Shown here: piece by piece, positions 1,690 to 17,680 of the stretch
Numbering within the stretch: the stretch's first letter is position 1
Layout of the letters: each line of letters begins with the position of its first letter
Virus record (IMG/VR): IMGVR_UViG_2718217795_000002
Coordinates: 1 to 41,292 of that record
DNA: 41,292 bases
From: a virus
Lineage: Duplodnaviria; Heunggongvirae; Uroviricota; Caudoviricetes
Strand: one strand, 5' to 3'
Translations under genes and position numbers: made by a program
Notes under the pieces: model-generated
Told to the model about the DNA's origin: nothing
Seen by the model: only the letters and a program-made list of their open reading frames with translations
Databases searched by the model: none

Positions 1690-1704
1690 TGGTGTCCCCT
1701 GCAG
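1690..1704. repeat. attR core: 15-bp copy (tggtgtcccctgcag) of the argW 3' end
   Basis: Exact 15-bp match to 40210-40224; flanking bases differ on both sides. Confidence 0.8.
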
Positions 1705-1777
1705 ACATCTACTTGAAGCGGCAGGGGGTTGATTGGAATGGTGTTTTTTAGATGTGATAAATATTTTACCCGCTATT

Positions 1778-1978: not shown

Positions 1979-2021
1979 GAGTGCTATCTCCGAATAGGGA
2001 ATCGAACCTGCAAATCAGGCA

Positions 2022-2043
2022 ATAAAAAACCGCATTGATGCGG
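2022..2043 (-). terminator. Rho-independent terminator of the leftward early operon (stem ccgca/tgcgg, T-run on minus strand)
   Basis: Plus strand aaaaaaccgcattgatgcgg; on the minus strand a hairpin followed by TTTTTT, downstream of the ORF ending at 2103. Confidence 0.5.
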
Positions 2044-2102
2044 CGATGTTATGTCTGGATATATTGAGAAATGAACAGGCCTCATCGAGTGTGAGGCTGT
2101 GG

Positions 2103-2474
2103 TTAGTCATTGCGTAACTCGCTAATTCTTTTGTAAGTCTCTGGTGCTTTGTTTCCGTGTATCTTCATTTCTGACTTCAACAGAGCAACGAGGGAATCCC
2201 ATTCGTTGAGGATGCCTTTGAATGCCGGAACGCGCTTTGCAACCTTGTCGAATGAATCTCTGATTTCTGGAATCTGCTCGACAAGCGCAACGCATCGTCG
2301 GAAATCGGCTGCGTCATGTGGAGCGCCGAAGTGATGACCATAGATATTCTTTTTCAGTCCACATGCGATTGAGGCAAGAGTTGCGCTACTGATGCCGACA
2401 TCGCCAGTCGATTGCCATTTCAAAACCTTCATAGCCAAATCTGACATTTCTTGTCTCCAATAAAAAACCGCCAT
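2103..2474 (-). CDS. Hypothetical phage protein, 123 aa
   Basis: ORF in the co-directional minus-strand operon; start overlaps stop of the upstream small ORF (TGATG); alternative start at Met10 with a GGAG SD. Confidence 0.6.
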   Translation of the reverse strand: MAVFYWRQEMSDLAMKVLKWQSTGDVGISSATLASIACGLKKNIYGHHFGAPHDAADFRRCVALVEQIPEIRDSFDKVAKRVPAFKGILNEWDSLVALLKSEMKIHGNKAPETYKRISELRND

Positions 2475-2641
2475 CAGGCGGCATGGTGTTCTTTCAGTTC
2501 TTCAATTCGAATATTGGTTACGTCTGCATGCGCTATCTGCGCCCATATCATCCAGTGGTCATAGCAGTCGTTGATGTTCTCTGCTTCGATAACTCTGTTG
2601 AATGGCTCTCCATTCCATTCACCTGTCACCCGGAAGTGCAT
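2474..2641 (-). CDS. Small hypothetical protein, 55 aa (below ORF-track cutoff)
   Basis: ATG at 2641 preceded by GGAG with 7-nt spacer; stop overlaps next start; fills the gap between flanking genes. Confidence 0.3.
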   Translation of the reverse strand: MHFRVTGEWNGEPFNRVIEAENINDCYDHWMIWAQIAHADVTNIRIEELKEHHAA

Positions 2642-2713
2642 TTATCATCTCCATAAAACAAAACTCGCCGTAGCGAGTTCAGATAAAAGAAATCCCCGCG
2701 AATGCGAGGATTG

Positions 2714-2998
2714 TTATTCAGTGCCGATATTCACCTTTATCGCGAACACCTTTACCGGTTTATCGCCGAAGTGGGGATGTGTGATTGTCTTGATTTCATA
2801 TCCGTCATACGGAATATCAATTCTGCGGCTGGAATCGTCGCGCTTCGGATATCCCTTTGTGATAATCAGACGGTCATACTTTCGGAACATAATTCGCTTA
2901 TTCCAATAGTCATTACACAGGCGATACTCTTCCGTTTTCTCTCCGCGAATCATGGCATCGAAGTATTCACCTTTAACGGCAAGTTGCAGGTTAGCCAC
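2714..2998 (-). CDS. Hypothetical protein, possibly ASCH/PUA-like fold, 94 aa
   Basis: ORF in operon; family assignment is from weak recollection only. Confidence 0.6.
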   Translation of the reverse strand: MANLQLAVKGEYFDAMIRGEKTEEYRLCNDYWNKRIMFRKYDRLIITKGYPKRDDSSRRIDIPYDGYEIKTITHPHFGDKPVKVFAIKVNIGTE

Positions 2999-3611
2999 GG
3001 TTAACCTCCTGCGGCGGCTCCGGTAGCGGCATCCAGTGAGTTATTTCATCGGCAAAGATATCTGAGTTAAGTTCCGTCCAACTATTCCAATACCCAGATT
3101 CATCCCACCATTTAACCTCGACATGCTCGCCGTCGGTCACTAACACATCAGCATACCCTTTCGGCATTCGCTCACTACAGCTTATCCAACTATCCGGAGT
3201 TACCGGAGAGTTGCCAGATAGCTCGTTCAACTTGTAAGTTTGGCTTACAGGTTCGGCACCATGAAGCATGGCGGCGCGGCAGGCATTCCAGCCTCTCACC
3301 TCTGCAATAGCGGCAACAGCATCGACCGCGTACATGCTAAGAGGGTTAGGCATTGTTTTTTCTTCAGGTACTACTGGCACTGGAGGGGCGGCATAAACAG
3401 GAATAACGTCCGCTTGCTCTTTATTGCTTTCATCCGTTAAAGCCCAGAATAATTTCCCGGCCGGATGTTTGAAAATATAAGCAACTGGATCTGCTTCCAG
3501 CGATGCCAGAGCAATTTCATAAGCACGGCGCTCAATATTGTCTCGAACGTCCAAGCTGCCTATGCGCTCTTTGATTTCTTTAATCAGTTCTTTGTCGGTA
3601 AAAGTGGTCAT
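2991..3611 (-). CDS. DUF551-domain phage protein, about 206 aa
   Basis: C-terminal WISCSERMPKGY...WMPLPEPP motif typical of DUF551; start moved to ATG at 3611 with AAGGAG SD (track ORF extends to 3641). Confidence 0.7.
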   Translation of the reverse strand: MTTFTDKELIKEIKERIGSLDVRDNIERRAYEIALASLEADPVAYIFKHPAGKLFWALTDESNKEQADVIPVYAAPPVPVVPEEKTMPNPLSMYAVDAVAAIAEVRGWNACRAAMLHGAEPVSQTYKLNELSGNSPVTPDSWISCSERMPKGYADVLVTDGEHVEVKWWDESGYWNSWTELNSDIFADEITHWMPLPEPPQEVNRG

Positions 3612-3612
3612 A

Positions 3613-4320
3613 TCACTCTCCTTTGATGCGAATGCCAGCAAGCCAGTTTCTTATGCCGATATATTCAGCGTTCCTGAAACCGCTTTTTACATATATAAAT
3701 GGCAAGCGAAGATTGTGACCATTGACTGCCAGGTAGTCTTTACAACCCTGTTCGGTGAAACAGCAGGTAACGAATTCATCAATATCTTTCACAGCAACGC
3801 GCCGCCATTTTTCTGGTGGCTCTCGAAAGTTTTCGTGAAGTAGTTCGAGACGACGACTTTGGCGTTTATTGGCTTCATTGCCATCTTCATCAACCCAGAC
3901 AATCCGGTCATAGTCATAATCAGCATCAACAACGATTTCGCGCTTTTGATACACACAAAACATAGGGTCTGACGTTATTCGATTATCCTGTGTTCGAATA
4001 TTTTCACCGATGATGCCAAACGAATCTGGTGCAGAGTTTGTCTGCAACTCTTCGATACGTTCAGCCATAGCAGCACACTCTTCAAAGTTGCTTAATTCTT
4101 TTCGCTCCCATTCGGCGCATTGTTTTTCCAGTTCTGCTATGCGCTTACTCCCATCCGAGATAACGCCCTCGTAATACTCACGCTGCTCGTTGAGTTTTGA
4201 TTCAAGTTCACCGAACTTACGGACAAGATATTCAGCGTTTGTTTCGTTAACCTTTAAATCTCGTGGGATGCATTGACCTTTCAGAAATCCATCCATCTCA
4301 ATTAGTGACATTTGTTTCAT
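3613..4320 (-). CDS. Ea22-like coiled-coil protein, about 235 aa
   Basis: Coiled-coil N-terminal region plus C-terminal domain as in lambdoid Ea22 proteins; track start at 4338 is GTG; ATG at 4320 forms an ATGA overlap with the upstream small ORF. Confidence 0.6.
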
Positions 4321-4481
4321 TTCTTCCCACTCCGCCACATCGCATTCAGATATTTGTTTTGATTTACTGATGGAAAAGAATTTCTCTTAAGCAATTCCTC
4401 TCTCGATGGCATTGGCTTTACGCGTTGGCGAATAATCATTTCTGCCGGAAGAATGCCGGGATTGTATGCAAGTCCTCTCAT
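4317..4481 (-). CDS. Small hypothetical protein, 54 aa (below ORF-track cutoff)
   Basis: ATGA start/stop overlaps with both neighbours (4478-4481 and 4317-4320). Confidence 0.3.
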
Positions 4482-4759
4482 GATTTACTCTCCACGAACT
4501 GGTCAACGGCCATGCTAAGTGACACACCTAAAGTTTCGATATGCTGCTGAATATCCTGTAGCGTCTGCGCCTGAGATAACAGTATTTCACGGTTGCATAA
4601 CTCTTTAACCAGATGCTCAAACTTGCTGTAATAACCGATACGGCTTAGTGTTTCTTTCCCTGCATTCTCGCCTTCTTTGATAATTCCTCTTTCGCTAAGA
4701 ATCAGGTCGTGTTTGGTGCCGGTAATAACGTATTTTCCGAGGTCGATGTTTAGCTTCAT
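4478..4759 (-). CDS. Hypothetical protein, 93 aa
   Basis: ORF in the co-directional operon; no family recognised. Confidence 0.55.
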
Positions 4760-4775
4760 TGTTAATTACTCCATG

Positions 4776-5090
4776 TTAATTTATTCGTATGCCTGCTCTT
4801 TCTTCATCGAGTTTTTTTAGCTTGTATCGCATAGCTCTTACTGAATAAATTGAGCGGCAGGTTGCAATTGCTATTTCTTCTGCGGAGAACTTACCGAAAA
4901 GTGATACTTCGGCTCTTGTCCATCGTCTTCCACGAAGTCGGCTAACAATGTCAGCGCCAATCCTTGTTGCTTTCGCCATTACTGCTTTTTCAGTCCTTTC
5001 CAGTTTTTCAGCGATAACTTCAACTGGCATTGTCGCCGCTACTTCGCGCAAGAAATCGACTTCCCATTTCTCCCATGGAGTCTTTTTCAT
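4776..5090 (-). CDS. Hypothetical protein with two Trp-containing SANT/Myb-like helix repeats (putative DNA-binding), 104 aa
   Basis: Two internal repeats (WEKWEVDFLREVAA... and WTRAEVSLFGKFSAEEIA...) read by eye. Confidence 0.55.
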   Translation of the reverse strand: MKKTPWEKWEVDFLREVAATMPVEVIAEKLERTEKAVMAKATRIGADIVSRLRGRRWTRAEVSLFGKFSAEEIAIATCRSIYSVRAMRYKLKKLDEERAGIRIN

Positions 5091-5101
5091 AGGCGATACC
5101 G

Positions 5102-5590
5102 TTATTTGATAAGAAGTGAAGGTTTCCCAACTTTGAGTTGAGCACCGGGGATATTTATTCCTGCTTTTAGTTGTTGTTTGATTGCCAGTTTGTCGGCTTT
5201 AATTGTCGTTTCGAACTCAACGTATTCAGGAGGAAGGGCGCTTGAGTCGAAGATTTCTACAGTTTCTGACGGTTTGCGGATTGTTACCTGGTGAATACCT
5301 GCTCGAATCTTTTTCTTGCCAACCATTTCAAGCGATGACGCTATATACGCCATAATGCTGTTAATCTTATTTTGAATTACTGCGGCTCGCTCATTTAGTG
5401 ACTTTGCCTCTTCCTTGAGGCGTTCAGCATAACCAGATTCATTTTTAATAATGGCAAGAAGTTGCTCTATTTTATCGGTAAATTCTCCTTCCATGCCTTC
5501 TATTGTGTCAGCAATCATCTCTGGTTCTAAATCTGAATCCATCAATTTTGCGTATTCATTGGCAATTTCATACAGTTTGCTCACTAGCAA
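5102..5590 (-). CDS. Gp157-like coiled-coil protein (recombination-module accessory), 162 aa
   Basis: Directly downstream of recT; family assignment from recollection, moderate. Confidence 0.6.
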   Translation of the reverse strand: MLVSKLYEIANEYAKLMDSDLEPEMIADTIEGMEGEFTDKIEQLLAIIKNESGYAERLKEEAKSLNERAAVIQNKINSIMAYIASSLEMVGKKKIRAGIHQVTIRKPSETVEIFDSSALPPEYVEFETTIKADKLAIKQQLKAGINIPGAQLKVGKPSLLIK

Positions 5591-6470
5591 CCTCCAGTTT
5601 CGCTTTGCATTCTATGTAAATGGCTTGTACGTTCTGCTGCAATTTCATTCCAGATGTCAGGCGATATGCTTCTGCAAAATATCGCTTCAAATCATCCATG
5701 TTTTCTGCCTGAGCCATTTCATCACAAAGAAGTTGTGCTTTATCCATTATTTCCTGCTGGCGTTTCCGTTCATCTTCGCGGATATCTTCCTCTGATTTGT
5801 GCGGCATAACTGGTTCCTGATGCATACCTTCATCTTCGTTAAGCAGGTGAATGGCATTATCCAGTCGCTGGGCTTTAGGCCAGTATTTGCTGGCACGTTT
5901 AACTATTGTTTTACGCGCCATCTCTTCCCAGAATGTTTTCCACGGTCCATTCTTTGCCTTGCTCGTTGCTTCCACAGCTTTAATTTCTGCCAGACTCATT
6001 TCTTCAGTCAGGTAGTCACCATCTGCTGTTTTAACCGTGCAATAACCTCCAACAATAGAGCCTCGCTCACCAAATGCGTTGTATTTGTGGGTTGGTGCTG
6101 AATCAAGGCCATTTGATTCATAGGTGTCGTTTGAGTACACCAGTTTGCATTGCCCCCACTTAATTGATCCTGTCGATTGCGCAAGATGAAGTAATCCCAT
6201 GTAACTGATATCAAGGCACACCATGCCGTCGCGCGGAACCAGATAAGCAAGTTTGCTGGCCGGGTTTAAGGTGATGCCGATCGCCGCAACATTGATGATG
6301 GCGTTCTGTGCGCTGGTTGGATTTGCCAGTGCCGTTTTAGCCAGGTAATCATTTTTCTGGAAATACTGAATTGCAAACTGGCTTTCCTTAGCCCATGTCA
6401 CCGTCTGTTCAGTCAATGCTCCGCAGAATAACTGCTCTTGCTGTTTAACGAATTCAACGATATTGCTCAT
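5568..6470 (-). CDS. recT: RecT-family single-strand annealing recombinase, 300 aa
   Basis: Motifs such as GITLNP...AYLVPR and overall similarity to RecT; sits in the lambda bet position. Confidence 0.85.
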   Translation of the reverse strand: MSNIVEFVKQQEQLFCGALTEQTVTWAKESQFAIQYFQKNDYLAKTALANPTSAQNAIINVAAIGITLNPASKLAYLVPRDGMVCLDISYMGLLHLAQSTGSIKWGQCKLVYSNDTYESNGLDSAPTHKYNAFGERGSIVGGYCTVKTADGDYLTEEMSLAEIKAVEATSKAKNGPWKTFWEEMARKTIVKRASKYWPKAQRLDNAIHLLNEDEGMHQEPVMPHKSEEDIREDERKRQQEIMDKAQLLCDEMAQAENMDDLKRYFAEAYRLTSGMKLQQNVQAIYIECKAKLEVASEQTV

Positions 6471-6778
6471 GCTGCTTCTCCAAAAATGTGTCTGCGTTTG
6501 AATATTGCGAAGGCATATTCAGCCTTAACTCTTTCTGTTATTGCATCCCAGAACCATTCAGCGGCTTTTTCCTGATAGTTACAGTCATCATCTTCCAGCC
6601 AGTCGATAGCGTCCTTAGTGTGTTCATCTGGCTTATATGAGCGAAGCATTTCGCTTATTGGGTCGCAACGTTTGCAGAGGCGATCAACTTCACTGTTGAT
6701 TCGTTCGTAATCTTCATCAGTAAAACTTGCGATTATTTGCGATATTTCACGCTTATCATTCAGAGTCAGAATCATCAT
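6467..6778 (-). CDS. Hypothetical protein, 103 aa
   Basis: ORF whose stop overlaps the recT start; in the lambda gam position but no Gam similarity recognised. Confidence 0.55.
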   Translation of the reverse strand: MMILTLNDKREISQIIASFTDEDYERINSEVDRLCKRCDPISEMLRSYKPDEHTKDAIDWLEDDDCNYQEKAAEWFWDAITERVKAEYAFAIFKRRHIFGEAA

Positions 6779-6859
6779 CTTTCTCCTGTTCTTTGTGCTG
6801 ATTGAGCATTTTGTTCATCTGACGAATGAATTCTTCGTCTGACCAGTTATCTGTAAAAC

Positions 6860-7012
6860 TCATTTCCTGCGATACCACGGAATGTTGATCGCTGATTTCA
6901 TCGCTTTATTTGCTTCAAGCCACATTTTGGAATCACCAATAAATCTGGCTATTACTGCTTTGTTTTGTGCTGCACGAAGCATCTGGTGATTGATGGCTAT
7001 TTCATTGCGCAT
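6860..7012 (-). CDS. kil: Kil-like host cell-division inhibitor, 50 aa (below ORF-track cutoff)
   Basis: GGAGG SD 4 nt upstream of ATG; segment IARFIGDSKMWLEANKA resembles recalled lambda Kil (IATFIGDEKMFREA); located between cIII-like ORF and the recombination genes as in lambda. Confidence 0.4.
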   Translation of the reverse strand: MRNEIAINHQMLRAAQNKAVIARFIGDSKMWLEANKAMKSAINIPWYRRK

Positions 7013-7131
7013 AACGCCTCCAGTTGTTTCTTTGCTGCTCTGATTAATTGTTTAACTCGGCGTGATAATTCAGATTCGTGCGGGTAGAAAGCGGACATGA
7101 CGCCGCTACCCGCGAGCTGAAAGTGCATCAT
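6997..7131 (-). CDS. cIII: cIII-like FtsH inhibitor, 44 aa (below ORF-track cutoff)
   Basis: GGAG SD; pattern ..AG..V......ES.L..R...L.. resembles recalled lambda CIII; position leftward of N as in lambda. Confidence 0.4.
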   Translation of the reverse strand: MMHFQLAGSGVMSAFYPHESELSRRVKQLIRAAKKQLEALCAMK

Positions 7132-7214
7132 GGGTAACTCCTTATATTTGATTGCATAACGAAAACGCCTCGAGTGAAGCGTTATTGGTATGCGGTAAAG
7201 CCGCGCTCAGGCGG

Positions 7215-7463
7215 CTACTCTATTTCTTCTTCGAATGATTTTATTAGTCGGTCAATAACATCATCCGTTTCAATATCATTTCCGTCTGATTGCTTTAATA
7301 CATCTATTGATTCTGCAGCGGTGAATTCCATCGCTGTGAGAAACTCGACAATTGCACACTCAACGACATATCGTTCTTCATCTGTACGACATGAGATAAA
7401 AGAGCATTTAATTGCTGTTATTACTTTTTGTTTAAGCTCTGCAGGGTAATCAGTTTTTATCAT
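7215..7463 (-). CDS. Hypothetical acidic protein, 82 aa
   Basis: ORF immediately downstream of a terminator hairpin; occupies the lambda ea10 position. Confidence 0.55.
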   Translation of the reverse strand: MIKTDYPAELKQKVITAIKCSFISCRTDEERYVVECAIVEFLTAMEFTAAESIDVLKQSDGNDIETDDVIDRLIKSFEEEIE

Positions 7464-7476
7464 CGTTTACTCCGTC

Positions 7477-7505
7477 AAAAAAATTGCCCTCACATTAGAG
7501 GGCAA
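7477..7505 (-). terminator. Rho-independent terminator within the pL operon (8-bp stem ttgccctc/gagggcaa plus T7 run on minus strand)
   Basis: Perfect 8-bp inverted repeat with 6-nt loop followed by TTTTTTT on the transcribed strand. Confidence 0.65.
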
Positions 7506-7660
7506 AGAAGATTTCCAATAATCAGAACAAGTCGGCTCCTGTTTAGTTACGAGCGACATTGCTCCGTGTATTCACTCGTTGGAATGAATACACAGTGCTG
7601 TGTTTATTCTGTTATTTATGCCAAAAATAAAGGCCACTATCAGGCAGCTTTGTTGTTCTA

Positions 7661-7807
7661 TTAACCAAGTTCTCTGGCAATCATTGCCGTCGTTCGTATT
7701 GCCCACACCATTGATTCTTATCAATAGTCGTAGTCATACGGATAGTCCTGGTATTGTTCCATCACATCCTGCGGATGCTCTTCGAACTCTTCAAATTCTT
7801 CTTCCAT
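7661..7807 (-). pseudogene. ral: ral-like (restriction alleviation) reading frame interrupted by tandem in-frame stops (TGA TAA)
   Basis: 28-aa acidic ORF with GAGGTGA SD (7721-7807), then TGA TAA, then the same frame encodes ...MVWAIRTTAMIARELG*, matching the recalled C-terminus of lambda Ral. Confidence 0.4.
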
Positions 7808-7861
7808 ATCTCACCTCAAATAAGTGGTTTGCTGCGAAAGTAAATACGCTTAAGTTACCTG

Positions 7862-7999
7862 TTATTTATCCCACCAAGTTCCGTATCTATCTATCCAGTT
7901 ACACCAATCATCGACACTCCATTTTGTTGTGTCGCATTTTGGCAACTGGCATGAATATCTACCTTCTTTGTAAAGTCGGCGCTTGACTTTCTTGAGCAT
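7862..7999 (-). CDS. Small Cys/Trp-rich hypothetical protein, 45 aa (below ORF-track cutoff)
   Basis: ATG preceded by GAGGTGA SD; just downstream of N stop. Confidence 0.3.
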   Translation of the reverse strand: MLKKVKRRLYKEGRYSCQLPKCDTTKWSVDDWCNWIDRYGTWWDK

Positions 8000-8007
8000 G
8001 GCTCACC

Positions 8008-8340
8008 TCAATCGTAATAAGCTGGAATTGATTTTCCGCGTTGCTTCTGGCGGCCTGAGCAAGTCACACCTATTTCACTGCGTGGCTTGCTGTACCATGT
8101 GCGCTGATTCTTGCGCTCAATACGCTGCAGGTTGCTTTCAATCTGTTCGTGGTATTCAGCCAGCACCGTAAGGTCTATCGGATTCAGTGCGCTTTCTACT
8201 CGTGAATTCGGTTTGCGATTCAGCGAGAGAATAGGGCGGTTAACTGGTTTTGCGCTTACCCCAACCAACAGGGGATTTGCTGCTTTCCATTGAGCCTGTT
8301 TCTCTGCGCGACGTTCGCGGCGGCGTGTTTGTGCATCCAT
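8008..8340 (-). CDS. N: Antitermination protein N (lambda type), 110 aa
   Basis: N-terminal arginine-rich motif MDAQTRRRERRAEKQAQWKAAN identical to lambda N; track ORF trimmed to the ATG at 8340. Confidence 0.9.
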   Translation of the reverse strand: MDAQTRRRERRAEKQAQWKAANPLLVGVSAKPVNRPILSLNRKPNSRVESALNPIDLTVLAEYHEQIESNLQRIERKNQRTWYSKPRSEIGVTCSGRQKQRGKSIPAYYD

Positions 8341-8450
8341 CTGGATTCTCCTGTCAGTTAGCTTTGAGTAACGCGCCGTGATGCTTATCTCCACGGTTGC
8401 TGTCTTGCAGCTGCATTTCGCGCTACTCAAAGCTTTCTGCTTTGAATGCT

Positions 8451-8481
8451 GCCCTTCTTCAGGGCTTAATTTTTAAGAGCC
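8451..8481 (-). promoter_or_regulatory. nutL site: boxB (8451-8465, reads GCCCTGAAGAAGGGC on minus strand) and boxA-like GCTCTTAAA (8472-8480)
   Basis: Reverse complement matches recalled lambda nutL almost base for base; located between pL region and N. Confidence 0.8.
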
Positions 8482-8522
8482 TCACCTTCATGGTGGTCAG
8501 TGCGTCCTGCTGATGGCTAAAT

Positions 8523-8562
8523 AGTACGATTTGTACTTTATCGAGTCAATACAAAATGTTCT
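8523..8562. promoter_or_regulatory. Putative OL operators / pL region: perfect dyad agtac-N5-gtact (8523-8537) and a degenerate copy (8548-8562)
   Basis: Palindromes read by eye; related half-sites recur in the cI-cro intergenic region. Confidence 0.35.
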
Positions 8563-8612
8563 AAATATAGTTGGTTTTTTATAACGCTTTGTATTTAATG
8601 GGTTTATATTTT

Positions 8613-8642
8613 GGAAAAAGAAAACCCGACACTAAGGTCGGG
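8613..8642 (-). terminator. Putative rho-independent terminator downstream of cI (stem cccgac/gtcggg, T-rich tail on minus strand)
   Basis: 6-bp stem with 6-nt loop; A-rich run 8613-8624 on plus strand equals T-rich tail for the minus-strand transcript. Confidence 0.45.
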
Positions 8643-8674
8643 TTATTGTTGTGTGCTTTAGAGTGGTGAGGTTG

Positions 8675-9328
8675 TTAACTAAATGTCTCTTCAGGCCACT
8701 GGCTGGCGATAACTTTCCCTACAACGGAACAGCTATCATTGCATGGGATCATTGGATATTGCGGGTTTAGTGGTTGTAGGAACACCTGACCGCTATCCCT
8801 GATCAGTTTCTTGAAGGTAAACTCGTCACCACCAAGTCTGGCTATGCAGAAATCACCTGGCTCAACAGCCTGCTCAGGGTCAACGAGAATTAACATCCCG
8901 TCAGGAAAGCTTGGCTTGGATCCTGTTGGTGCGGTCATGGAATTACCTTCAACTTCAAGCCAGAACGCACAATCACTGGCTTTTTTGGTTGTGCTGACCC
9001 ATCTCTCCGCATCACCTTTGGTAAAGGTTCTAAGCTCAGGCGAGAACATCCCGGCCTGAACATGAGAAAAAACAGGGTACTCATATTGTTTTTTAACGGG
9101 GGCAGATGAGTATTCGCCAACAGGTGAAAATGTACCGTCGTGGTTGAATGAGACGTTATCAATACCAAGGTATTTAAACACCACACCAATCTCGTCAAGA
9201 GATGGATGACGAGATCCGCGCAACCAGTGACCAATTCCACCCTGCGTCATACCAAGCTCTTCAGCTAACTTCTCTTGAGTTATGCCGAGCTCTTTCATTC
9301 TGGATCTAGCCAGTTCATACCATTTCAT
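8675..9328 (-). CDS. cI: CI-type repressor, chimeric: non-lambda HTH N-terminal domain fused to a lambda-CI-like C-terminal S24 autocleavage/dimerisation domain
   Basis: C-terminal region from [14 protein letters not shown] to ...[12 protein letters not shown] is near-identical to recalled lambda CI; N-terminal HTH differs; start chosen at ATG 9328 (9 nt after the purine-rich AAGGG, which abuts the ATG at 9334). Confidence 0.9.
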
Positions 9329-9445
9329 TTTCATACCCTTATTATTACGCTCTGTACTAAAACCATCCATGCACAAGATGTATTTTTTGTTTGCATTCTA
9401 AAAGTACATATCGTATTATTGTTTCATGGTTACTATGGAGGGCAT
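9329..9445. promoter_or_regulatory. Divergent cI-cro control region (OR operators, pRM and pR)
   Basis: 117-bp intergenic region between divergent cI and cro with dyad-like elements (9344-9358, 9369-9396, 9403-9417). Confidence 0.5.
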
Positions 9446-9661
9446 ATGAGCAACCTACGAAAATATCGAGAGTCACTGAATATCTCTCAAACAACACTTG
9501 CTAAGGCAGTTGGATGCACACAGGGAGCTATCGGACATTGGGAATCTGGTCGTCGCTTCCCAGACCTTAAAACATGCCGTGCTCTTGTTGAGTGCCTAAA
9601 CAAGTTAGGCGCAAAAGTCAGTCTTGATGACGTGTTCCCGCCGGAACACAAAGCCGCTTAA
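9446..9661 (+). CDS. cro: Cro-like HTH repressor, 71 aa
   Basis: ATG with GGAGG SD; short HTH protein divergent from cI; track ORF 9275-9661 trimmed. Confidence 0.8.
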   Translation: MSNLRKYRESLNISQTTLAKAVGCTQGAIGHWESGRRFPDLKTCRALVECLNKLGAKVSLDDVFPPEHKAA

Positions 9662-9670
9662 GACATTCTA

Positions 9671-9701
9671 GCTCTTACACATCACAGCCCTGAAAAAGGG
9701 C
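9671..9701 (+). promoter_or_regulatory. nutR site: boxA GCTCTTACA (9671-9679) and boxB GCCCTGAAAAAGGGC (9687-9701)
   Basis: Matches recalled lambda nutR; located between cro and cII. Confidence 0.8.
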
Positions 9702-9777
9702 ATTACCAGAAACAAATCTCTATGGTTTTGCGTTTCTTTGCGAAGCCAACTCTATCTAATTATTAAGGAAATTATCT

Positions 9778-10059
9778 ATGGGTACTATTGCAACTAAAAG
9801 CAAGAAAGCGGCTCGCATCGAGTCAGCCTTGCTGAACAAACTGGCACTGATGGGGCAGAAGACATTCGCTCGAGCGATGGGGGTTCCTGAATATCAGGTA
9901 AGCCGATGGAAGAATGGTTTCTTCTCGCAGGTAAGCATGATGCTGGCTGTTCTGGAATACGGAATCGAAGACGATGAAATGGCTGAATTGACTAAGCGGC
10001 TTGCCGATTACCTGACAAAAGAAAAAGCCCCGAAGAACGGCGAATTCTTCGAGGCCTGA
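9778..10059 (+). CDS. cII: CII transcriptional activator, 93 aa
   Basis: RIESALLNKLA...SRWK...MLAVLEYG motif strongly resembles lambda CII. Confidence 0.85.
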   Translation: MGTIATKSKKAARIESALLNKLALMGQKTFARAMGVPEYQVSRWKNGFFSQVSMMLAVLEYGIEDDEMAELTKRLADYLTKEKAPKNGEFFEA

Positions 10060-10094
10060 TTGTAGAAAGACTGGATCAATCCACAGGAGTAATT

Positions 10095-10259
10095 ATGACA
10101 AAACGTCGTAAGAAATACCAGGAAAAAGAAGAGATTCGACACCCTGATTCACCTGAGGGATTAGTGGTAGCCGCAGCAAATAACAGGGCGTTCGCAGAGC
10201 GCCTTGTTGGTGTTTACAGACTAGCCAAAGCAGGAGTGAAACATGGGCGTCGTTAAGTT
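10095..10259 (+). CDS. Small basic hypothetical protein, 54 aa (below ORF-track cutoff)
   Basis: ATG at 10095 with AGGAG SD at 5-nt spacing; overlaps the O start by 17 nt. Confidence 0.3.
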
Positions 10260-11064
10260 AGCTGATTACAGGCCTCAACTGGAGGTCGTGGAGCATCGCG
10301 TGGCAGATACCGAAGATGGTTTCATGCGCGTTGCTAACGAGATTACCGACAGTCTGCTGATGGCTGATTTAACCGTCCGGCAGCTGAAGGTGATGCTCGC
10401 TATCATGCGCAAGACATACGGATTCAATAAGCCGATGGATCGACTCACAAACACGCAGATAGCAGCCATGACAGGTATTCATCACACTCATGTTTGCGCT
10501 GCCAAGCGCCAGCTTATTGAGCGTAAATTCCTCATTGCTGATGGCGTGAAAATCGGAGTGAACAAGGTGGTTTCTCAGTGGATTAGCCAGGACAGCTTAA
10601 CATTAGCTAAAACAGCTAATAAAACATTAGCCAAGTCGGCTAATGGGTATAAGCCAAGTCAGCTAAACACAAAAGACAATATACAAAAGACAATAAATAC
10701 AAATACCCCCTTACCCCCTAACGGGGGCGGCGATGGGCAGGTTAAACCTGAACGTCGCAAGGCAGAACGAATCGACTACGAATCCTTCCTGAACGCTTAC
10801 AACACCGAAGTCGGTGACAGACTGCCACACGCTGTTGCGGTCAACGAGAAACGCAAACGCCGCCTGAAGAAAATCATCCCGCAACTGAAAACGCCAAACG
10901 TGGACGGTTTCAGAGCGTATGTCAGGGCGTTTGTGCATCAGGCCAAGCCGTTTTACTTCGGAGACAACGACACGGGCTGGACGGCTGATTTTGATTACCT
11001 GCTGAGAGAAGACTCGTTAACGGGAGTTCGGGAAGGGAAGTTTGCAGACAGGGGGATTGCATGA
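10243..11064 (+). CDS. O: Replication initiation protein O, 273 aa
   Basis: N-terminal [28 protein letters not shown] resembles lambda O; ori iterons inside the gene. Confidence 0.85.
10583..10705. repeat. Origin of replication: four ~17-bp dyad iterons (10583, 10604, 10627, 10650) followed by an AT-rich stretch
   Basis: Repeats ttagccaggacagcttaa / ttagctaaaacagctaa / ttagccaagtcggctaa / taagccaagtcagctaa spaced 21-23 bp, then AT-rich 10667-10705, inside O as in lambda ori. Confidence 0.6.
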
Positions 11065-12437
11065 GACAGGATATCGAAGCGAGCGTTATCGGTGGCCTGC
11101 TGATTGGTGGATTAACACCAACCGCCAGTGACGTTCTGGCAACGCTGGAGCCGGAAGCGTTTTCAATTCCGCTCTACCGGAAAGCCTTCGAGGTTATCCG
11201 CAAGCAGGCGCGAAACAGAAACCTAATCGACGCACTGATGGTTGCCGAGGCGTGCGGAGAGGAGCATTTCACGTCAATCCTGATGACCAGCAAAAACTGC
11301 CCGAGTGCCGCAAACCTGAAGGGATATGCCGGAATGGTCGCGGATAACTATCACCGCCGTCTGGTGCTGGAAATCATGGATGAAATGCGTGAACCAATTC
11401 AGAGCGGAACCATCGACGCATCGAGTCAGGCGATGGATGAACTTGTAAAACGTCTCTCAGCTATCAGAAAGCCCCGTGACGAGGTTAAACCTGTACGGTT
11501 AGGGGAAATCATCACTGACTACACTGACACGCTTGACAGGCGTCTGAGGAACGGAGAAGAGTCAGATACCCTGAAGACCGGAATCGAAGAACTTGACGCT
11601 ATCACCGGAGGGATGAACGCAGAAGACCTGGTGATTATCGCCGCTCGTCCTGGTATGGGGAAAACCGAACTGGCGCTGAAGATTGCCGAAGGCGTTGCAA
11701 GCCGCGCTATTCCTGGTTCTGACGTCCGGCGCGGAGTGTTGATTTTCTCGATGGAAATGAGCGCATTGCAGATTGCAGAGCGAAGCATTGCCAACGCCGG
11801 GAGGATGTCGGTTAGCGTGCTGCGAAATCCTGCATCGATGGATGACGAAGGCTGGGCGCGTGTTGCTAACGGCATGAGTCAGCTTGCAGATTTGGATGTA
11901 TGGGTAGTCGATGCCTCGCGGTTATCGGTCGAAGAAATACGCTCAATCGCAGAACGGCACAAGCAGGAAAATCCAAACCTGTCACTCATCATGGCGGATT
12001 ATCTTGGCCTGATTGAGAAGCCGAAAGCAGACCGCAACGACCTCGCAATTGCTCACATCTCCGGAAGCCTGAAGGCGATGGCGAAAGACCTGAAAACGCC
12101 TGTTATCTCCCTGAGTCAGCTTTCGCGCGATGTTGAGAAGCGACCAAACAAACGCCCGACAAACGCAGATTTGCGTGATTCAGGAAGCATTGAACAGGAC
12201 GCAGACTCAATCATCATGCTCTATCGGGAAGCGGTATATGACGAGAACAGTAGCGCCGCACCATTTGCTGAAATCATTGTGACAAAAAACCGTTTTGGCT
12301 CGCTTGGTACGGTTTACCAGCGGTTCTGCAACGGACACTTTGTTGCATGTGACCAGGATGAAGCCAGACAGATTTGCACAGCATCAAATGCGCCCGCTGC
12401 GCGTGGCAGACGATATGCACAAGGGGCTGACGTATGA
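11061..12437 (+). CDS. Replicative DNA helicase, DnaB family (phage-encoded), 458 aa
   Basis: Walker A motif ARPGMGKT and DnaB-like architecture; ATGA overlap with O. Confidence 0.9.
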
Positions 12438-12462
12438 CCATCTACATCACTGAGCTAATAAC

Positions 12463-12491
12463 AGGCCTGCTGGTAATCGCAGGCCTTTTTA
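12463..12491 (+). terminator. Rho-independent terminator (tR2-like): 8-bp stem aggcctgc/gcaggcct plus T-run
   Basis: Perfect stem with 8-nt loop followed by TTTTT, between helicase gene and ninB. Confidence 0.6.
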
Positions 12492-12510
12492 TTTGGGGGA
12501 GAGGGAAGTC

Positions 12511-12951
12511 ATGAAAAAACTAACCTTTGAAATTCGATCTCCAGCACATCAGCAAAACGCTATCCACGCAGTACAGCAAATCCTTCCAGACCCAACCAAA
12601 CCAATCGTAGTAACCATTCAGGAACGCAACCGCAGCTTAGACCAGAATCGAAAGCTTTGGGCTTGCCTTGGTGACGTCTCTCGTCAGGTTGAATGGCATG
12701 GTCGCTGGCTGGATGCAGAAAGCTGGAAGTGTGTGTTTACCGCAGCATTAAAGCAGCAGGACGTTGTTCCTAACCTTGCCGGGAATGGCTTTGTGGTAAT
12801 AGGCCAGTCAACCAGCAGGATGCGTGTAAGCGAATTTGCGGAGCTATTAGAGCTTATACAGGCATTTGGTACAGAACATGGCGTTAAGTGGTCAGACGAA
12901 GCGCGACTGGCTCTGGAATGGAAAGCGAGATGGGGAGACAGGGCTGCATGA
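12511..12951 (+). CDS. ninB: NinB recombination protein, 146 aa
   Basis: Near-identical to recalled lambda NinB from [21 protein letters not shown]; track start (TTG 12493) trimmed to ATG 12511. Confidence 0.9.
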
Positions 12952-13130
12952 GGCGACAGCGACGAAGTATCACCGACATAATCTGCGAAAACTGCAAATA
13001 CCTTCCAACGAAACGCTCCAGAAATAAACGCAAGCCAATCCCAAAAGAATCTGACGTAAAAACCTTCAACTACACGGCTCACCTGTGGGATATCCGGTGG
13101 CTTAGAGAACGTGCGAGGAAAACAAGGTGA
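12948..13130 (+). CDS. ninE: NinE, 60 aa
   Basis: [20 protein letters not shown]... matches recalled lambda NinE; ATGA overlap with ninB stop. Confidence 0.8.
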
Positions 13131-13297
13131 TTGACCAAAATCGAAGTTACGAACAAGAAAGCGTCGAGCGGGCTTTAACGTGCGCTAACTGCGGTAAGAA
13201 GCTGCATGTGCTGGAAGTTCACGTGTGTGAGCACTGCTGCGCAGAACTGATGAGCGATCCGAATAGCTCAATGTACGAGGAAGAAGACGATGAGTGA
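13127..13297 (+). CDS. ninF: NinF, 56 aa, GTG start (below ORF-track cutoff)
   Basis: GTG overlapping ninE stop (GTGA); translation (M)[22 protein letters not shown]... matches recalled lambda NinF. Confidence 0.7.
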
Positions 13298-14012
13298 GTT
13301 AATGAATGGCAATGCCATCAAAATGACAAGCATTGAAATCGCTGAGTTGGTGGGTAAGCGTCATGACAATGTGAAACGTACCATCGAAACGCTGGCTAAA
13401 AATGGTGTTATCCGGCTTCCTCAAATTGAGGTTTCCGAAAGAATCAATAACTTAGGGTTCAATGTTCAGTACGAGCATTACGTCTTCGAGGGCGAACAAG
13501 GTAAGCGAGACAGTATTGTCGTTGTTGCCCAGTTGTCGCCAGAGTTCACCGCTCGCCTTGTTGACCGCTGGCGAGAGCTTGAAGAAGCTGCGGTTAATAT
13601 CCCCAAAACGCTACCAGAAGCGTTGCGCCTTGCTGCTGATCTTGCTGAGCAGAAAATGCAACTGGAAAACCAGCTCGCAATTGCCGCACCTAAAGTTGAG
13701 TTTGCCGATCGCGTTGGCGAGGCCAGCGGAATTTTGATTGGAAACTTTGCAAAGGTTGTCGGTATTGGTCAAAACAAACTGTTTGCATGGATGCGCGATC
13801 ACAAAATCCTTATTGCTTCAGGTTCCCGGCGAAATGTGCCAATGCAGGAATATATGGATCGCGGCTATTTCACAGTGAAAGAAACAGCGGTCAACACAAA
13901 TCACGGAATACAGATATCGTTCACCACAAAAATCACCGGGCGTGGTCAACAGTGGCTGACCAGAAAGCTGCTCGATAACGGAATGCTGAAAGTAACAGGG
14001 GAGGCTGCTTAA
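13290..14012 (+). CDS. Rha-family phage regulatory protein / antirepressor, 240 aa
   Basis: N-terminal Rha-like motif (IEIAELVGKRHDNVKRTIETL) and antirepressor-like C-terminal domain. Confidence 0.8.
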   Translation: MSELMNGNAIKMTSIEIAELVGKRHDNVKRTIETLAKNGVIRLPQIEVSERINNLGFNVQYEHYVFEGEQGKRDSIVVVAQLSPEFTARLVDRWRELEEAAVNIPKTLPEALRLAADLAEQKMQLENQLAIAAPKVEFADRVGEASGILIGNFAKVVGIGQNKLFAWMRDHKILIASGSRRNVPMQEYMDRGYFTVKETAVNTNHGIQISFTTKITGRGQQWLTRKLLDNGMLKVTGEAA

Positions 14013-14302
14013 TGGCTAACCTACGCAAAGAAGCGCGCGGCAGAGAATGCCAGGTACGTATTTACGGCGTATGCAATGGCAACCCTGAAACTACAGTTCT
14101 GGCACATTACCGGATGGCTGGAATTTGCGGAACGGGAATGAAGCCTGACGACCTGATCGGCGCATGGGCTTGTAGTGACTGCCACGCGGAGATCGACCGA
14201 CGCACCCATAATCTCGACAACAAAGACGCCAGACTTTACCACCTCGAAGGCGTAATCAGGACGCAGGCGATACTGCTGAAGGAGGGGAAGATTAAGTCAT
14301 GA
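14012..14302 (+). CDS. YbcO-like DUF1364 protein (putative Zn-binding nuclease), 96 aa
   Basis: CQVRIYGVCNGNPETTVLAHYR...CSDCHAEIDRRTH pattern recalled from E. coli YbcO. Confidence 0.75.
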   Translation: MANLRKEARGRECQVRIYGVCNGNPETTVLAHYRMAGICGTGMKPDDLIGAWACSDCHAEIDRRTHNLDNKDARLYHLEGVIRTQAILLKEGKIKS

Positions 14303-14661
14303 ACGAATATCAGTTTGTGCTTCCATACCCGCCGTCGGTGAACACCTACTGGCGAAGACGGGGAAGCCAATATTACATAAGCGATAAAGGCCAGAAATAC
14401 CGAAAAGACGTTCAGCAAATCATCCGCCAACTTAAGTTAGACATTTTCACCAAATCACGACTCCGCATCAAAGTAATCGCAGACGTTCCAGACTCCCGCC
14501 GCCGCGACCTCGACAACATCCTGAAAGGTTTACTCGACTCCCTTATCCACGCCGGATTTGCGGAAGACGACGAGCAATTCGATGACATTCGCGTAATTCG
14601 TGGCGTGAAAGTACCAGGCGGAAGGCTTGGAATAAAAATCACCGAACTGGAGAACGTATGA
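14299..14661 (+). CDS. rusA: RusA-family Holliday junction resolvase, 120 aa
   Basis: Conserved PDSRRRDLDN motif and overall RusA similarity. Confidence 0.9.
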   Translation: MNEYQFVLPYPPSVNTYWRRRGSQYYISDKGQKYRKDVQQIIRQLKLDIFTKSRLRIKVIADVPDSRRRDLDNILKGLLDSLIHAGFAEDDEQFDDIRVIRGVKVPGGRLGIKITELENV

Positions 14662-14846
14662 ACGCCACAATTCAAACGATACCAGAGCTTCTTATCCAGA
14701 CGCGAGGCAATCAGACCGAAGTGGCGAGGATGCTTTCCTGCGCAAGAGGAACAGTGCTCAAGTACAACCGAGACAGAAAAGGCGAGCGTCACGTAATAGT
14801 TAACGGCGTCCTGATGGTCAAACAGGGCAAGAGGGGAAGACGATGA
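14658..14846 (+). CDS. ninH: NinH, 62 aa
   Basis: TIPELLIQTRGNQTEVARML... resembles lambda NinH. Confidence 0.75.
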   Translation: MNATIQTIPELLIQTRGNQTEVARMLSCARGTVLKYNRDRKGERHVIVNGVLMVKQGKRGRR

Positions 14847-15466
14847 GACTCGAAAGCGTAGCTAAATTTCATTCGCCAAAAAGCCCGATGATGAGCGACT
14901 CACCACGGGCCACGGCTTCTGACTCTCTTTCCGGTACTGATGTGATGGCTGCTATGGGGATGGCGCAATCACAAGCCGGATTCGGAATGGCTGCATTCTG
15001 CGGTAAGCATGAACTCAGCCAGAACGACAAACAAAAGGCTATCAACTATCTGATGCAATTTGCACACAAGGTATCGGGGAAATACCGTGGTGTGGCAAAG
15101 CTCGAAGGAAATACTAAGGCAAAGGTACTGCAAGTGCTCGCAACATTCGCTTATGCGGATTATTGCCGTAGTGCCGCGACGCCGGGCGCAAGATGCAGAG
15201 ATTGCCACGGTACAGGCCGTGCGGTTGATATAGCAAAAACAGAGCAGTGGGGGAGAGTTGTTGAGAAAGAGTGCGGAAGATGCAAAGGTGTCGGCTATTC
15301 AAGGATGCCAGCAAGCGCCGCATATCGCGCTGTGACGATGCTAATCCCAAACCTTACTCAACCCACCTGGTCACGCACTGTTAAACCACTGTATGACGCT
15401 CTGGTGGTGCAATGCCACAAAGAAGAGTCAATCGCAGACAACATTTTGAATGCGGTCACACGTTAG
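14843..15466 (+). CDS. Q: Late antiterminator Q (lambda type), 207 aa
   Basis: Essentially identical to recalled lambda Q along its length. Confidence 0.95.
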   Translation: MRLESVAKFHSPKSPMMSDSPRATASDSLSGTDVMAAMGMAQSQAGFGMAAFCGKHELSQNDKQKAINYLMQFAHKVSGKYRGVAKLEGNTKAKVLQVLATFAYADYCRSAATPGARCRDCHGTGRAVDIAKTEQWGRVVEKECGRCKGVGYSRMPASAAYRAVTMLIPNLTQPTWSRTVKPLYDALVVQCHKEESIADNILNAVTR

Positions 15467-15508
15467 CGTCATGATTGCCACGGATGGCAACATATTAACG
15501 GCATAATA

Positions 15509-15544
15509 TTGACTTTTTGAATAAAGTTGGGTAAATTTGACTCA
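15509..15544 (+). promoter_or_regulatory. Late promoter pR' (-35 TTGACT 15509-15514, -10 TAAATT 15532-15537) with overlapping qut region
   Basis: Hexamers with 17-bp spacer; sequence matches recalled lambda pR'. Confidence 0.7.
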
Positions 15545-15572
15545 ACGATGGATAAATGCACTCGTTAAATAA

Positions 15573-15605
15573 AGCCCTGAGTTAATAGCTCGGGGCTTTT
15601 TGCGT
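15573..15605 (+). terminator. tR'-like rho-independent terminator (9-bp stem, T-run)
   Basis: Stem agccctgag/ctcggggct (one G-U) with 7-nt loop followed by TTTTT; about 30 nt downstream of predicted pR' start. Confidence 0.65.
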
Positions 15606-15899
15606 TTTAATCACGACCTTTCTGAAAGCACATCAAACCAAATACCAGACAGACAAAAATAATCACCTTATCCGCTGTGGCTACGGTGCGGTGTGCTTTG
15701 CATAAAAGAAAACCAGCGCAATGGCTGGCTTCGTGAAAGCGGGTGGCAAGAGGTTGCGCTAACAACCTCCTGCCGTTTTGCCCGTGCATATCGGTCACGA
15801 ACAAATCTGATTACTAAACACAGTAGCCTGGATTTGTTCTATCAGTAATCGACCTTATTCCTAATTAAATAGAGCAAATCCCCTTATTGGGGGTAAGAC

Positions 15900-16223
15900 A
15901 TGAAGATGCCAGAAAAACATGACCTGTTAGCCGCCATTCTCGCGGCAAAGGAACAAGGCATCGGGGCAATCCTTGCGTTTGCAATGGCGTACCTTCGCGG
16001 CAGATATAATGGCGGTGCGTTTACAAAAACAGTAATCGACGCAACGATGTGCGCCATTATCGCCTGGTTCATTCGTGACCTTCTCGACTTCGCCGGACTA
16101 AGTAGCAATCTCGCTTATATAACGAGCGTGTTTATCGGCTACATCGGTACTGACTCGATAGGTTCGCTTATCAAACGCTTCGCTGCTAAAAAAGCCGGAG
16201 TAGAAGATGGTGGAAATCAATAA
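15900..16223 (+). CDS. S: Holin S (lambda type, dual start Met1/Met3), 107 aa
   Basis: [34 protein letters not shown]... matches lambda S. Confidence 0.95.
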
Positions 16224-16683
16224 TCAACGTAAGGCGTTCCTCGATATGCTGGCATGGTCAGAGGGAACTGATAACGGACGTCAGAAAACCAGAAATCATG
16301 GTTATGACGTCATTGTAGGAGGAGAGCTATTCACTGATTACTCCGATCACCCTCGCAAACTTGTCACGCTAAACCCCAAACTCAAATCAACAGCCGCCGG
16401 ACGCTACCAGCTTCTTTCCCGTTGGTGGGATGCCTACCGCAAGCAGCTTGGCCTGAAAGACTTCTCTCCCAAAAGCCAGGACGCTGTGGCACTGCAGCAG
16501 ATTAAGGAGCGTGGCGCTTTACCGATGATTGATCGCGGTGATATTCGTCAGGCTATTGATCGTTGCAGCAATATTTGGGCTTCATTGCCCGGTGCTGGCT
16601 ACGGTCAGTATGAACACAAGATCGATAGTCTGATTGCCAAATTCAAAGAAGCTGGCGGGGTGGTTAATGAAACTTCGCTATAA
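16207..16683 (+). CDS. R: Endolysin R (lambda-type lytic transglycosylase), 158 aa
   Basis: [35 protein letters not shown]... matches lambda R. Confidence 0.95.
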
Positions 16684-17059
16684 GCTGGTTATTTCTGCTT
16701 TCCTCCTGACTTTATTCGGTTCTCTCGTCTGGTCAGCTAACCACTACCACAGCAAATACCAGCGCGAAAAGAAACGTGCTGATGAGGCTGTACAAAATGC
16801 CGAATCGGCAACCGCTATTACCAATAACGTCCTGCAATCACTGCAAATCGTCAATACAGTTCTGGAGGCTAACCAGCATGCAAAACAGCAGATCGCACTG
16901 GAGTCACAGAGAACCCAGGCTGATATCAAAGTGGCTGTTGCGGATGATGATTGTGCTGTACGCCCTGTGCCTGCTGCCGCTGCTGACCGGTTGCGGAAGT
17001 ACGCGAACAGTTTACGTACCGATTCCGGCGGTACCGTTGCCAGCAAGCCTGACTACTGA
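16667..17059 (+). CDS. i-spanin (Rz-like), 130 aa
   Basis: Start at ATG 16667 overlapping R end; N-terminal TM helix then coiled-coil region; track ORF 16634-17059 trimmed. Confidence 0.7.
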   Translation: MKLRYKLVISAFLLTLFGSLVWSANHYHSKYQREKKRADEAVQNAESATAITNNVLQSLQIVNTVLEANQHAKQQIALESQRTQADIKVAVADDDCAVRPVPAAAADRLRKYANSLRTDSGGTVASKPDY

Positions 17060-17216
17060 AACTCCCCAGCCAGTCATTCCCGAGCCGCTGACCTATGGGG
17101 CCAGTCTGGATCTGAATGTGAGCCTGCTTTCGGCGTTGGGACAATGCAATATTGACAAAGCGGGGATTCGAAGTATCGAGATGCGCCGTAACGCTTTGCT
17201 GGCAGCAGTCAAATAG
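16944..17216 (+). CDS. o-spanin (Rz1-like lipoprotein), 90 aa, +1 frame, overlapping the 3' part of the Rz gene
   Basis: Signal peptide MMIVLYALCLLPLLTGC with lipobox LLTGC; Pro-rich mature region; starts inside Rz and runs past its stop. Confidence 0.5.
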   Translation: MMIVLYALCLLPLLTGCGSTRTVYVPIPAVPLPASLTTETPQPVIPEPLTYGASLDLNVSLLSALGQCNIDKAGIRSIEMRRNALLAAVK

Positions 17217-17242: not shown

Positions 17243-17593
17243 ATGCCCCCTCGAACTCCAAAAGCCTGCCGCGTTCGCGGCTGCCGTAATACCACGACAG
17301 ACCCGTCAGGCTACTGCGAAAGCCACAAAAGCGAAGGCTGGAAGCAATACAAGCCAGGACAATCCCGTCATCAGCGCGGCTACGGTTCGAAGTGGGACGT
17401 TATCCGTGCGCGTGTGCTGAAACGTGACAAAGGCCTGTGTCAGTTATGTCTGCGTGCCGGTGTGGTGCGTGAAGCGAAAACCGTTGACCACATCATCCCT
17501 AAAGCGCATGGCGGCACCGATGCAGACAGTAATCTGCAGAGCCTGTGCTGGCCGTGCCATAAGGCGAAGACGGCCCGTGAACGGCTGAAGTGA
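17243..17593 (+). CDS. HNH endonuclease (packaging-associated), 116 aa
   Basis: Cys-rich N-terminus, HNH motif (DHIIPKAHGG ... CHKAK); immediately upstream of terminase. Confidence 0.85.
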   Translation: MPPRTPKACRVRGCRNTTTDPSGYCESHKSEGWKQYKPGQSRHQRGYGSKWDVIRARVLKRDKGLCQLCLRAGVVREAKTVDHIIPKAHGGTDADSNLQSLCWPCHKAKTARERLK

Positions 17594-17619: not shown

Positions 17620-17680
17620 GGGGCGGGTCAAATCCCTGTGACCTGACGTCTTCCGGACTGCCCGCCCCATCGTTTTTTTA
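17620..17680 (+). other. GC-rich inverted repeat (ggggcggg ... cccgcccc) followed by T7 run; putative terminator or cos-proximal structure
   Basis: 8-bp perfect arms 17620-17627 and 17661-17668 with 33-nt spacer, then TTTTTTT 17673-17679. Confidence 0.35.

Follow-up and report, generated by a model that had tools for sequence, protein, structure and literature searches.

A probable SfV/Mu-type overlapped spanin pair behind a lambda-type holin and endolysin in a hybrid Escherichia coli prophage

Background

Which spanin system has been joined to the lambda-like S and R genes of this prophage, is the open reading frame in the +1 frame of Rz a genuine o-spanin gene, and where in the lysis cassette does the lambda-like DNA end? 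These questions are raised by the lysis region of IMG/VR virus record IMGVR_UViG_2718217795_000002, of which positions 1 to 41,292 (41,292 nt, hereafter the window) were analysed. A pair is called overlapped, in the definition of Summer 2007 and Kongari 2018, if the o-spanin gene, in a different frame, has its start within the i-spanin gene and its stop past that of the i-spanin. A first-pass annotation made from the sequence had proposed such a pair here.

The holin and endolysin genes

The genes run in the order S-R-Rz-Rz1, all on the + strand, with Rz and Rz1 adjoining the holin and endolysin genes (Table 1). In profile searches the holin scored 105 bits on PF05106 and 127 bits on TIGR01594, and it is identical to lambda S at 106 of 107 residues (99%). 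Endolysin R is identical to lambda R at 150 of 158 residues (95%), the final 8 residues being unlike those of lambda, so that the first-pass description of both genes as essentially lambda stands. Pfam-A and NCBIfam scans of R found no family at E<0.01, and its identity was taken from PHROGs (phrog_90, endolysin) together with the identity to lambda R. RefSeq labels for identical and near-identical R proteins are inconsistent, reading "glycoside hydrolase family 24" in some records and "family 104" in others. The dual-start motif M-K-M, which gives the S107/S105 antiholin/holin of lambda, is kept in the window holin at 15900-15908; the motif is absent from the different holin that accompanies the same spanins in SfV-type phages. 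The R and Rz genes overlap by 17 nt, as they do in SfV and HK106.

Table 1 Features of the lysis region and its right flank, in window coordinates
Feature	Position	Strand	Remarks
Holin S	15900-16223	+	107 aa, lambda family
Endolysin R	16207-16683	+	158 aa, lambda-type transglycosylase
End of nucleotide homology to lambda/HK022	16654-16662		blastn; mismatch density up from 16545
i-spanin Rz	16667-17059	+	130 aa; ATG 16667, stop codon 17057-17059
Rz transmembrane segment (predicted)	16685-16741	+	residues 7-25; best 19-residue Kyte-Doolittle window, mean 1.75
Mosaic joint relative to HK106/HK633	16745-16752		Rz codons 27-29
Shine-Dalgarno-like GGAGG	16864-16868	+	9 nt upstream of ATG 16878; read from sequence
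o-spanin Rz1 (Rz1/LysC-like lipoprotein precursor)	16878-17216	+	+1 frame relative to Rz; PF23793, phrog_456
Lipobox L-L-T-G-C	16980-16994	+	Cys codon 16992-16994; PROSITE PS51257 core pattern
HNH endonuclease	17243-17593	+	PF01844, 60 bits; SfV-type right-end module

An i-spanin outside the lambda family

Rz has the make-up of an i-spanin, with one predicted N-terminal transmembrane domain and a periplasmic domain that is largely helical in the model. The transmembrane segment is preceded by MKLRYK, whose three basic residues fit the predicted N-in topology. A single-sequence AlphaFold2 model (mean pLDDT 82) places helices at residues 2-93 and 103-118, giving a predicted layout of an N-terminal transmembrane helix, a long periplasmic helix, a linker that holds Cys96 and a second helix; this modelled helix-linker-helix arrangement is the usual i-spanin layout.

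The protein falls in phrog_214 ("Rz-like spanin", E=2e-48) and is identical to SfV Rz at 112 of 130 residues (86%), which places it in the (SfIV, SfV) i-spanin family of Kongari et al., for which at least 40% identity over at least 40% of the periplasmic domain is required. It is also 28% identical to Mu gp23 (E=9e-12), with which it has the block DxC(A/S)xRPVPAxAADRLR in common. The lambda Rz profile PF03245 did not match window Rz at E<0.01, whereas the control proteins lambda Rz and HK106 Rz scored 183 and 133 bits, and the likeness of window Rz to lambda Rz is limited to the transmembrane segment (BLASTP, residues 4-35). The lambda Rz1 profile PF06085 likewise matched no window protein at E<0.01, and membership of the lambda Rz/Rz1 families was rejected on these searches and on the overlapped, not embedded, arrangement. 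An i-spanin of a family other than that of lambda had been suspected from the sequence, and the searches bear this out.

On PF10828 (DUF2570, the name RefSeq uses for the SfV-type i-spanin), window Rz scored 20.5 bits, below the gathering threshold of 26.6, whereas SfV Rz passes at 28.0; by HMM score window Rz would thus be a borderline member of the family, though 86% identical to a member. An NCBIfam scan of Rz and Rz1 gave no meaningful match.

The +1 frame encodes a conserved, predicted lipoprotein

The candidate o-spanin gene lies in the +1 frame relative to Rz. Its possible start codons (ATG 16878, TTG 16938 and ATG 16944) are all within Rz and its stop codon, 17214-17216, lies 157 nt past that of Rz, and the first-pass reading of the pair as overlapped, with a start inside Rz and the same overhang, is therefore correct. 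Depending on the start, the precursor is 90-112 aa long (112 aa from 16878), of which 74 aa would make up the mature part. The frame encodes the LLTGC lipobox that had been noted, and the PS51257 core pattern is matched by ALCLLPLLTGC; around the predicted cleavage site the protein reads MMIVLYALCLLPLLTGC followed by GSTRTV. The description of Rz1 as Pro-rich fits one segment and not the protein overall: the mature part has 8 prolines among 74 residues (11%), every one of them in residues 10-32. A second lipobox-like motif in the same frame, ITSC at 16833, was dismissed; no hydrophobic core precedes it, and it lies upstream of the point at which the +1 frame becomes open in SfV and the E. coli phage vB_EcoM-720R4 (720R4).

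A lipobox is weak evidence by itself: the six-frame translation of the whole window contains 51 matches to the PROSITE core pattern, and the motif was dropped as stand-alone evidence. Together with the frequency of open +1 frames in genes of such composition, this count is what speaks for a chance open frame, in a phage that would then have an i-spanin only or some other disruptor of the outer membrane. Against such a reading stands, to begin with, family membership. Rz1 scored 64.4 bits (E=9e-18) on Pfam PF23793 LysC over residues 13-79 of the 90-aa form, 37 bits over the cut-off of 27 and close to P2 LysC (64.9 bits) and the Mu o-spanin (52.7 bits) in the same family, and it falls in phrog_456 ("Rz-like spanin", E=3e-27). 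A tblastn search with Rz1 found 124 phage records, including SfV, SfIV, SfII, Mu, D108, the APSE phages and phages of Klebsiella, Yersinia and Erwinia.

Eight relatives (SfV, 720R4, SfIV, SfII, Mu, APSE-2, Klebsiella RAH1 and Erwinia Ehr49) were compared in detail. All eight keep the +1 frame relative to the upstream i-spanin gene, the lipobox Cys and the C-terminal core motif LLxAL(G/A/E)xCNxD(K/R), and in each of them the o-spanin frame runs past the i-spanin stop, by 136-202 nt. Rz1 is 96% identical to SfV Rz1 over the full-length precursor, and its mature part is 73% identical to that of SfIV, 50% to Mu and 46% to APSE-2, within the "Mu" o-spanin family of Kongari et al. (again at least 40% over at least 40% of the periplasmic domain). 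The frame, the Cys and the C-terminal motif persist down to 43-50% amino acid identity in Mu, APSE-2 and Erwinia phages.

Selection in the Rz1 frame was measured beyond the Rz stop. Since dS was saturated against Mu, APSE-2, RAH1 and Ehr49, dN/dS was taken from the SfIV and SfII comparisons only; in this Rz-free part pS (0.70-0.73) is far above pN (0.20-0.31), and dN/dS of 0.12-0.14 indicates purifying selection. The +1 ORF thus appears well above chance by its LysC score, its spread in tblastn and selection in its own frame, and the chance reading is so improbable as to be effectively refuted. The first-pass annotation had said that lack of conservation of the +1 ORF in relatives would count against an o-spanin; as the ORF encodes a conserved LysC-family lipoprotein, that objection fails.

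The start of Rz1

The three candidate starts give signal peptides of different length. From ATG 16878, the start used for SfV Rz1 and for RefSeq lysC, Rz1 overlaps Rz by 182 nt and has a predicted signal peptide of 38 residues, which puts the Cys at position 39, beyond the 15-35 range of the PROSITE lipoprotein rule. Only the form read from TTG 16938 agrees with PS51257 in all three respects, its Cys being residue 19 and one of its first seven residues basic; from ATG 16944 the n-region has no basic residue. Translation from one of these proximal codons would leave a signal peptide of 16-18 residues and make the 5' 60 nt of the SfV-style ORF noncoding in that frame, and the genes would still overlap, by 116-122 nt. 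A proximal start is also in keeping with the possible signal peptides of 18-28 residues in Mu and Ehr49 and with the listing of the SfIV o-spanin by Kongari et al. (PMC6139136) at 93 aa with a 139-nt overlap, from a shorter start than that of RefSeq.

Neither proximal codon has a recognisable Shine-Dalgarno sequence, however, whereas GGAGG stands 9 nt before ATG 16878 and is kept as ggagg in SfIV and SfII (agagg in SfV, cgagg in Klebsiella phage RAH1). In APSE-2 the sole start codon in frame gives the same 38-residue leader, behind an annotated RBS. ATG 16878 is therefore the more likely start as judged from sequence, and use of a proximal codon is possible but doubtful.

A probable two-component spanin and its proposed action

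Taken together, Rz and Rz1 very probably make up an overlapped two-component spanin, SfV/Mu in type, which completes the four-gene lysis cassette S-R-Rz-Rz1. Its topology and action we infer from the two protein sequences, the Rz model and the lambda Rz-Rz1 system, and the searched literature yielded no experiments on the window allele or on SfV Rz/Rz1. Rz would be a type II inner-membrane protein: a transmembrane helix at the N-terminus would be followed by a periplasmic domain, mostly helical, that contains a single Cys. Rz1, translated in the +1 frame and most likely from ATG 16878, is predicted to be exported and acylated at the Cys of LLTGC, and to be sorted to the outer membrane because its +2 residue is Gly rather than Asp. 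By analogy with lambda, the two proteins would bind through their C-terminal periplasmic parts and so span the periplasm, and after S has triggered and R has degraded the murein the complex would fuse the inner and outer membranes. The single periplasmic Cys of each protein (C96 of Rz, C52 of mature Rz1) may be available for intermolecular disulfides, which Kongari et al. 2018 (PMC6139136) proposed as general for spanins.

Prior description, distribution and annotation

This SfV/Mu-type pair is already known, catalogued and common. Kongari et al. 2018 (PMC6139136), in their spanin census, list SfV as "ovl", with the i-spanin at 36089-36482, the o-spanin at 36300-36639 and an overlap of 182 nt, which corresponds to window positions 16878-17059; its i-spanin family is given as (SfIV, SfV) and its o-spanin family as Mu. 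The SfIV genome paper described a holin-lysin-Rz-Rz1 cassette common to SfII, SfIV and SfV (PMC3851460). SfV Rz and Rz1 carry GenBank and RefSeq annotation, and in E. coli genomes RefSeq names the second gene "lysC: Rz1-like lysis system protein LysC". The whole 1.4-kb cassette is present at 99% identity or more in five E. coli genomes, at least 80% of it in 55, and the junction of R with a DUF2570-type Rz in 513 of 5426 complete E. coli genomes.

Annotation of the two genes is uneven. In E. coli MB30 (our locus L001), the closest RefSeq relative at 99%, a lysC CDS is annotated at the same coordinates and an intact 130-aa Rz ORF at 3818-4210 has no CDS. Many E. coli records carry either "DUF2570" or "lysC" under the junction and not both, and in phage 720R4 the Rz1 CDS is 5'-truncated to 59 aa, starting past the lipobox. 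Such gaps look systematic for overlapped spanins, and automated pipelines often annotate just one of two overlapping spanin genes. The window pair should be labelled i-spanin and o-spanin, SfV/Mu type, overlapped, and the label has little import beyond annotation.

A mosaic joint at the R/Rz boundary and inside Rz

The first-pass annotation had also suspected a mosaic joint within the cassette, and nucleotide alignments locate it. Lambda and HK022 are 96% identical to the window up to 16658, where their blastn alignments break off about 25 nt short of the R stop codon. HK106 matches the window without exception over 16537-16740 and differs at 16741 and 16744; from 16752 onwards the two sequences are unrelated, which puts the sharpest joint at Rz codons 26-29, directly after N-H-Y, a conserved motif that closes the transmembrane segment on its periplasmic side. 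The SfV alignment begins within R, at 16225; SfV identity is about 62-80% at 16650-16750 and 86-96% up to 17000, and over 16966-17211 there is no mismatch. By these alignments the cassette is recombinant: S and R are lambda/HK97-like except for the 3' end of R, which together with the first 28 Rz codons is HK106-like (two nucleotide mismatches, 28 identical residues), and SfV/SfII-like DNA makes up the remainder of Rz as well as Rz1, the HNH gene and the structural genes.

Which of the two Rz proteins is the composite one is a separate matter. The Rz proteins of HK106, HK633 and E. coli PI24 are identical to window Rz in their first 28 residues, with two synonymous nucleotide differences between the window and HK106 in those codons, and from residue 29 they have an HK97-type PF03245 domain with an embedded Rz1 whose lipobox is VSAC. 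These genes lie at 2318-2779 of the HK106 locus (L003) and at 1528-1989 of the E. coli PI24 locus (L015), and the crossover in them falls at the conserved AAT-CAT-TAC (N-H-Y) codons. Window Rz could itself be the recombinant, a lambda-family transmembrane segment fused to an SfV-type periplasmic domain, given that from the 3' end of R through nt 85 of Rz the window is near-identical to HK106 (two mismatches) and only 62-80% identical to SfV in the same stretch. The N-terminus in question, however, resembles those of SfV-type proteins and not the one common to lambda and HK97, and the 5' Rz allele is joined to a DUF2570-type gene in 513 E. coli genomes and to a "lysis protein" of the PF03245 type only among 26 genomes with partial matches. 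This SfV-like N-terminus and its usual DUF2570-type partner make the HK106-type protein, rather than window Rz, the more likely chimera as far as sequence can tell; a recombinant origin of window Rz is unlikely.

If the HK106-type protein is the composite one, the HK106, HK633 and PI24 proteins may each consist of a membrane anchor from the SfV family and a periplasmic domain of HK97 type. We lean, with some reserve, towards the view that the W-x-x-N-H-Y sequence at the periplasmic end of the transmembrane segment may be a recurrent crossover point, at which entire periplasmic spanin modules would pass between lambdoid phages and yield viable chimeric i-spanins such as these three. In such an exchange an overlapped DUF2570/LysC module may take the place of an embedded PF03245/Rz1 module. 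If such swaps do occur, nature would have shown that one anchor can replace another and that the o-spanin travels with the periplasmic domain alone. As an instance of lambdoid mosaicism at a domain boundary, the breakpoint within Rz is a tidy one, and it fits the published view that the membrane anchor of i-spanins is functionally generic.

The right flank and the prophage as a whole

An HNH gene follows the spanin genes likewise in SfV (orf53, at the same position), SfIV and SfII, and in the window it sits between Rz1 and cos/small terminase. HNH proteins of the HK97 gp74 type assist terminase cleavage. The SfIV paper speculated on a role of the HNH gene in lysis timing (PMC3851460). The SfV genome record ends at window position 17651 and begins at 17652, so that the packaging module of SfV type has its cos cleavage site between these two positions; in the cos region, 17626-17680, this site lies between the inverted-repeat arms GGGGCGGG and CCCGCCCC, followed by a T-run. 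The lysis and HNH genes would therefore lie at the far right of the chromosome in the virion.

The left half of the window is HK97/HK022-like early DNA and the right half SfII/SfI/SfV-like morphogenesis DNA, and as the two meet at R/Rz, this joint is the main module boundary of the prophage. Positions 1-15899 hold an HK97/HK022/P22-like early region with nin genes and Q. Positions 17217-41292 hold an SfII/SfI/SfV-type late region with a P27-family small terminase, an HK97-like head and a Mu-like contractile tail, and the late-region match reaches the O-antigen glucosyltransferase (gtr) genes of Shigella serotype-converting phages.

Because the sequence occurs as a prophage in E. coli chromosomes, the spanin genes could be intact remnants in a decaying element that no longer expresses or needs them. 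This is very unlikely, as none of the four lysis ORFs is broken, nor are Q, the HNH gene, the terminase or the late genes; their identity to the corresponding genes of isolated phages is 96-99%, and near-identical copies are found in several unrelated strains.

Comparison with known spanin systems

The closest known system is that of SfV (Rz NP_599083, Rz1 NP_599084), which with SfIV, SfII and E. coli phage vB_EcoM-720R4 has the same gene order of R, Rz, Rz1, HNH and cos. The SfV pair has the same 17-nt R/Rz and 182-nt Rz/Rz1 overlaps and the same 157-nt overhang. It differs in its upstream genes, with another holin and an R gene about 66-100% identical by 50-nt block, and most in the transmembrane region of Rz, at 62-80% nucleotide identity. 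Mu has the overlapped +1 arrangement, the LLTGC lipobox and the C-terminal motif ALGQCNxDKA in common with the window, but its o-spanin extends 202 nt past the i-spanin, other lysis genes flank it and identity is much lower.

P2 LysB/LysC, the textbook overlapped pair, is alike in architecture, and the two o-spanins both score about 65 bits on the PF23793 LysC profile. BLASTP gave no significant similarity between window Rz and LysB (E=14) or between Rz1 and LysC (E=1.3), and a P2 LysB-type i-spanin was rejected for window Rz on the former value; "P2-like" can therefore refer only to the architecture and the Pfam LysC profile.

HK106, HK633 and E. coli PI24 are alike in the upstream S and R genes, at 97%. 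Lambda Rz/Rz1 resemble the window pair in their position after S and R, in inferred function, in a similar transmembrane segment with W-x-x-N-H-Y and in the one periplasmic Cys of Rz1; they differ in that lambda Rz1, of 60 aa, is fully embedded in Rz and in that the periplasmic domains are unrelated to those of the window proteins.
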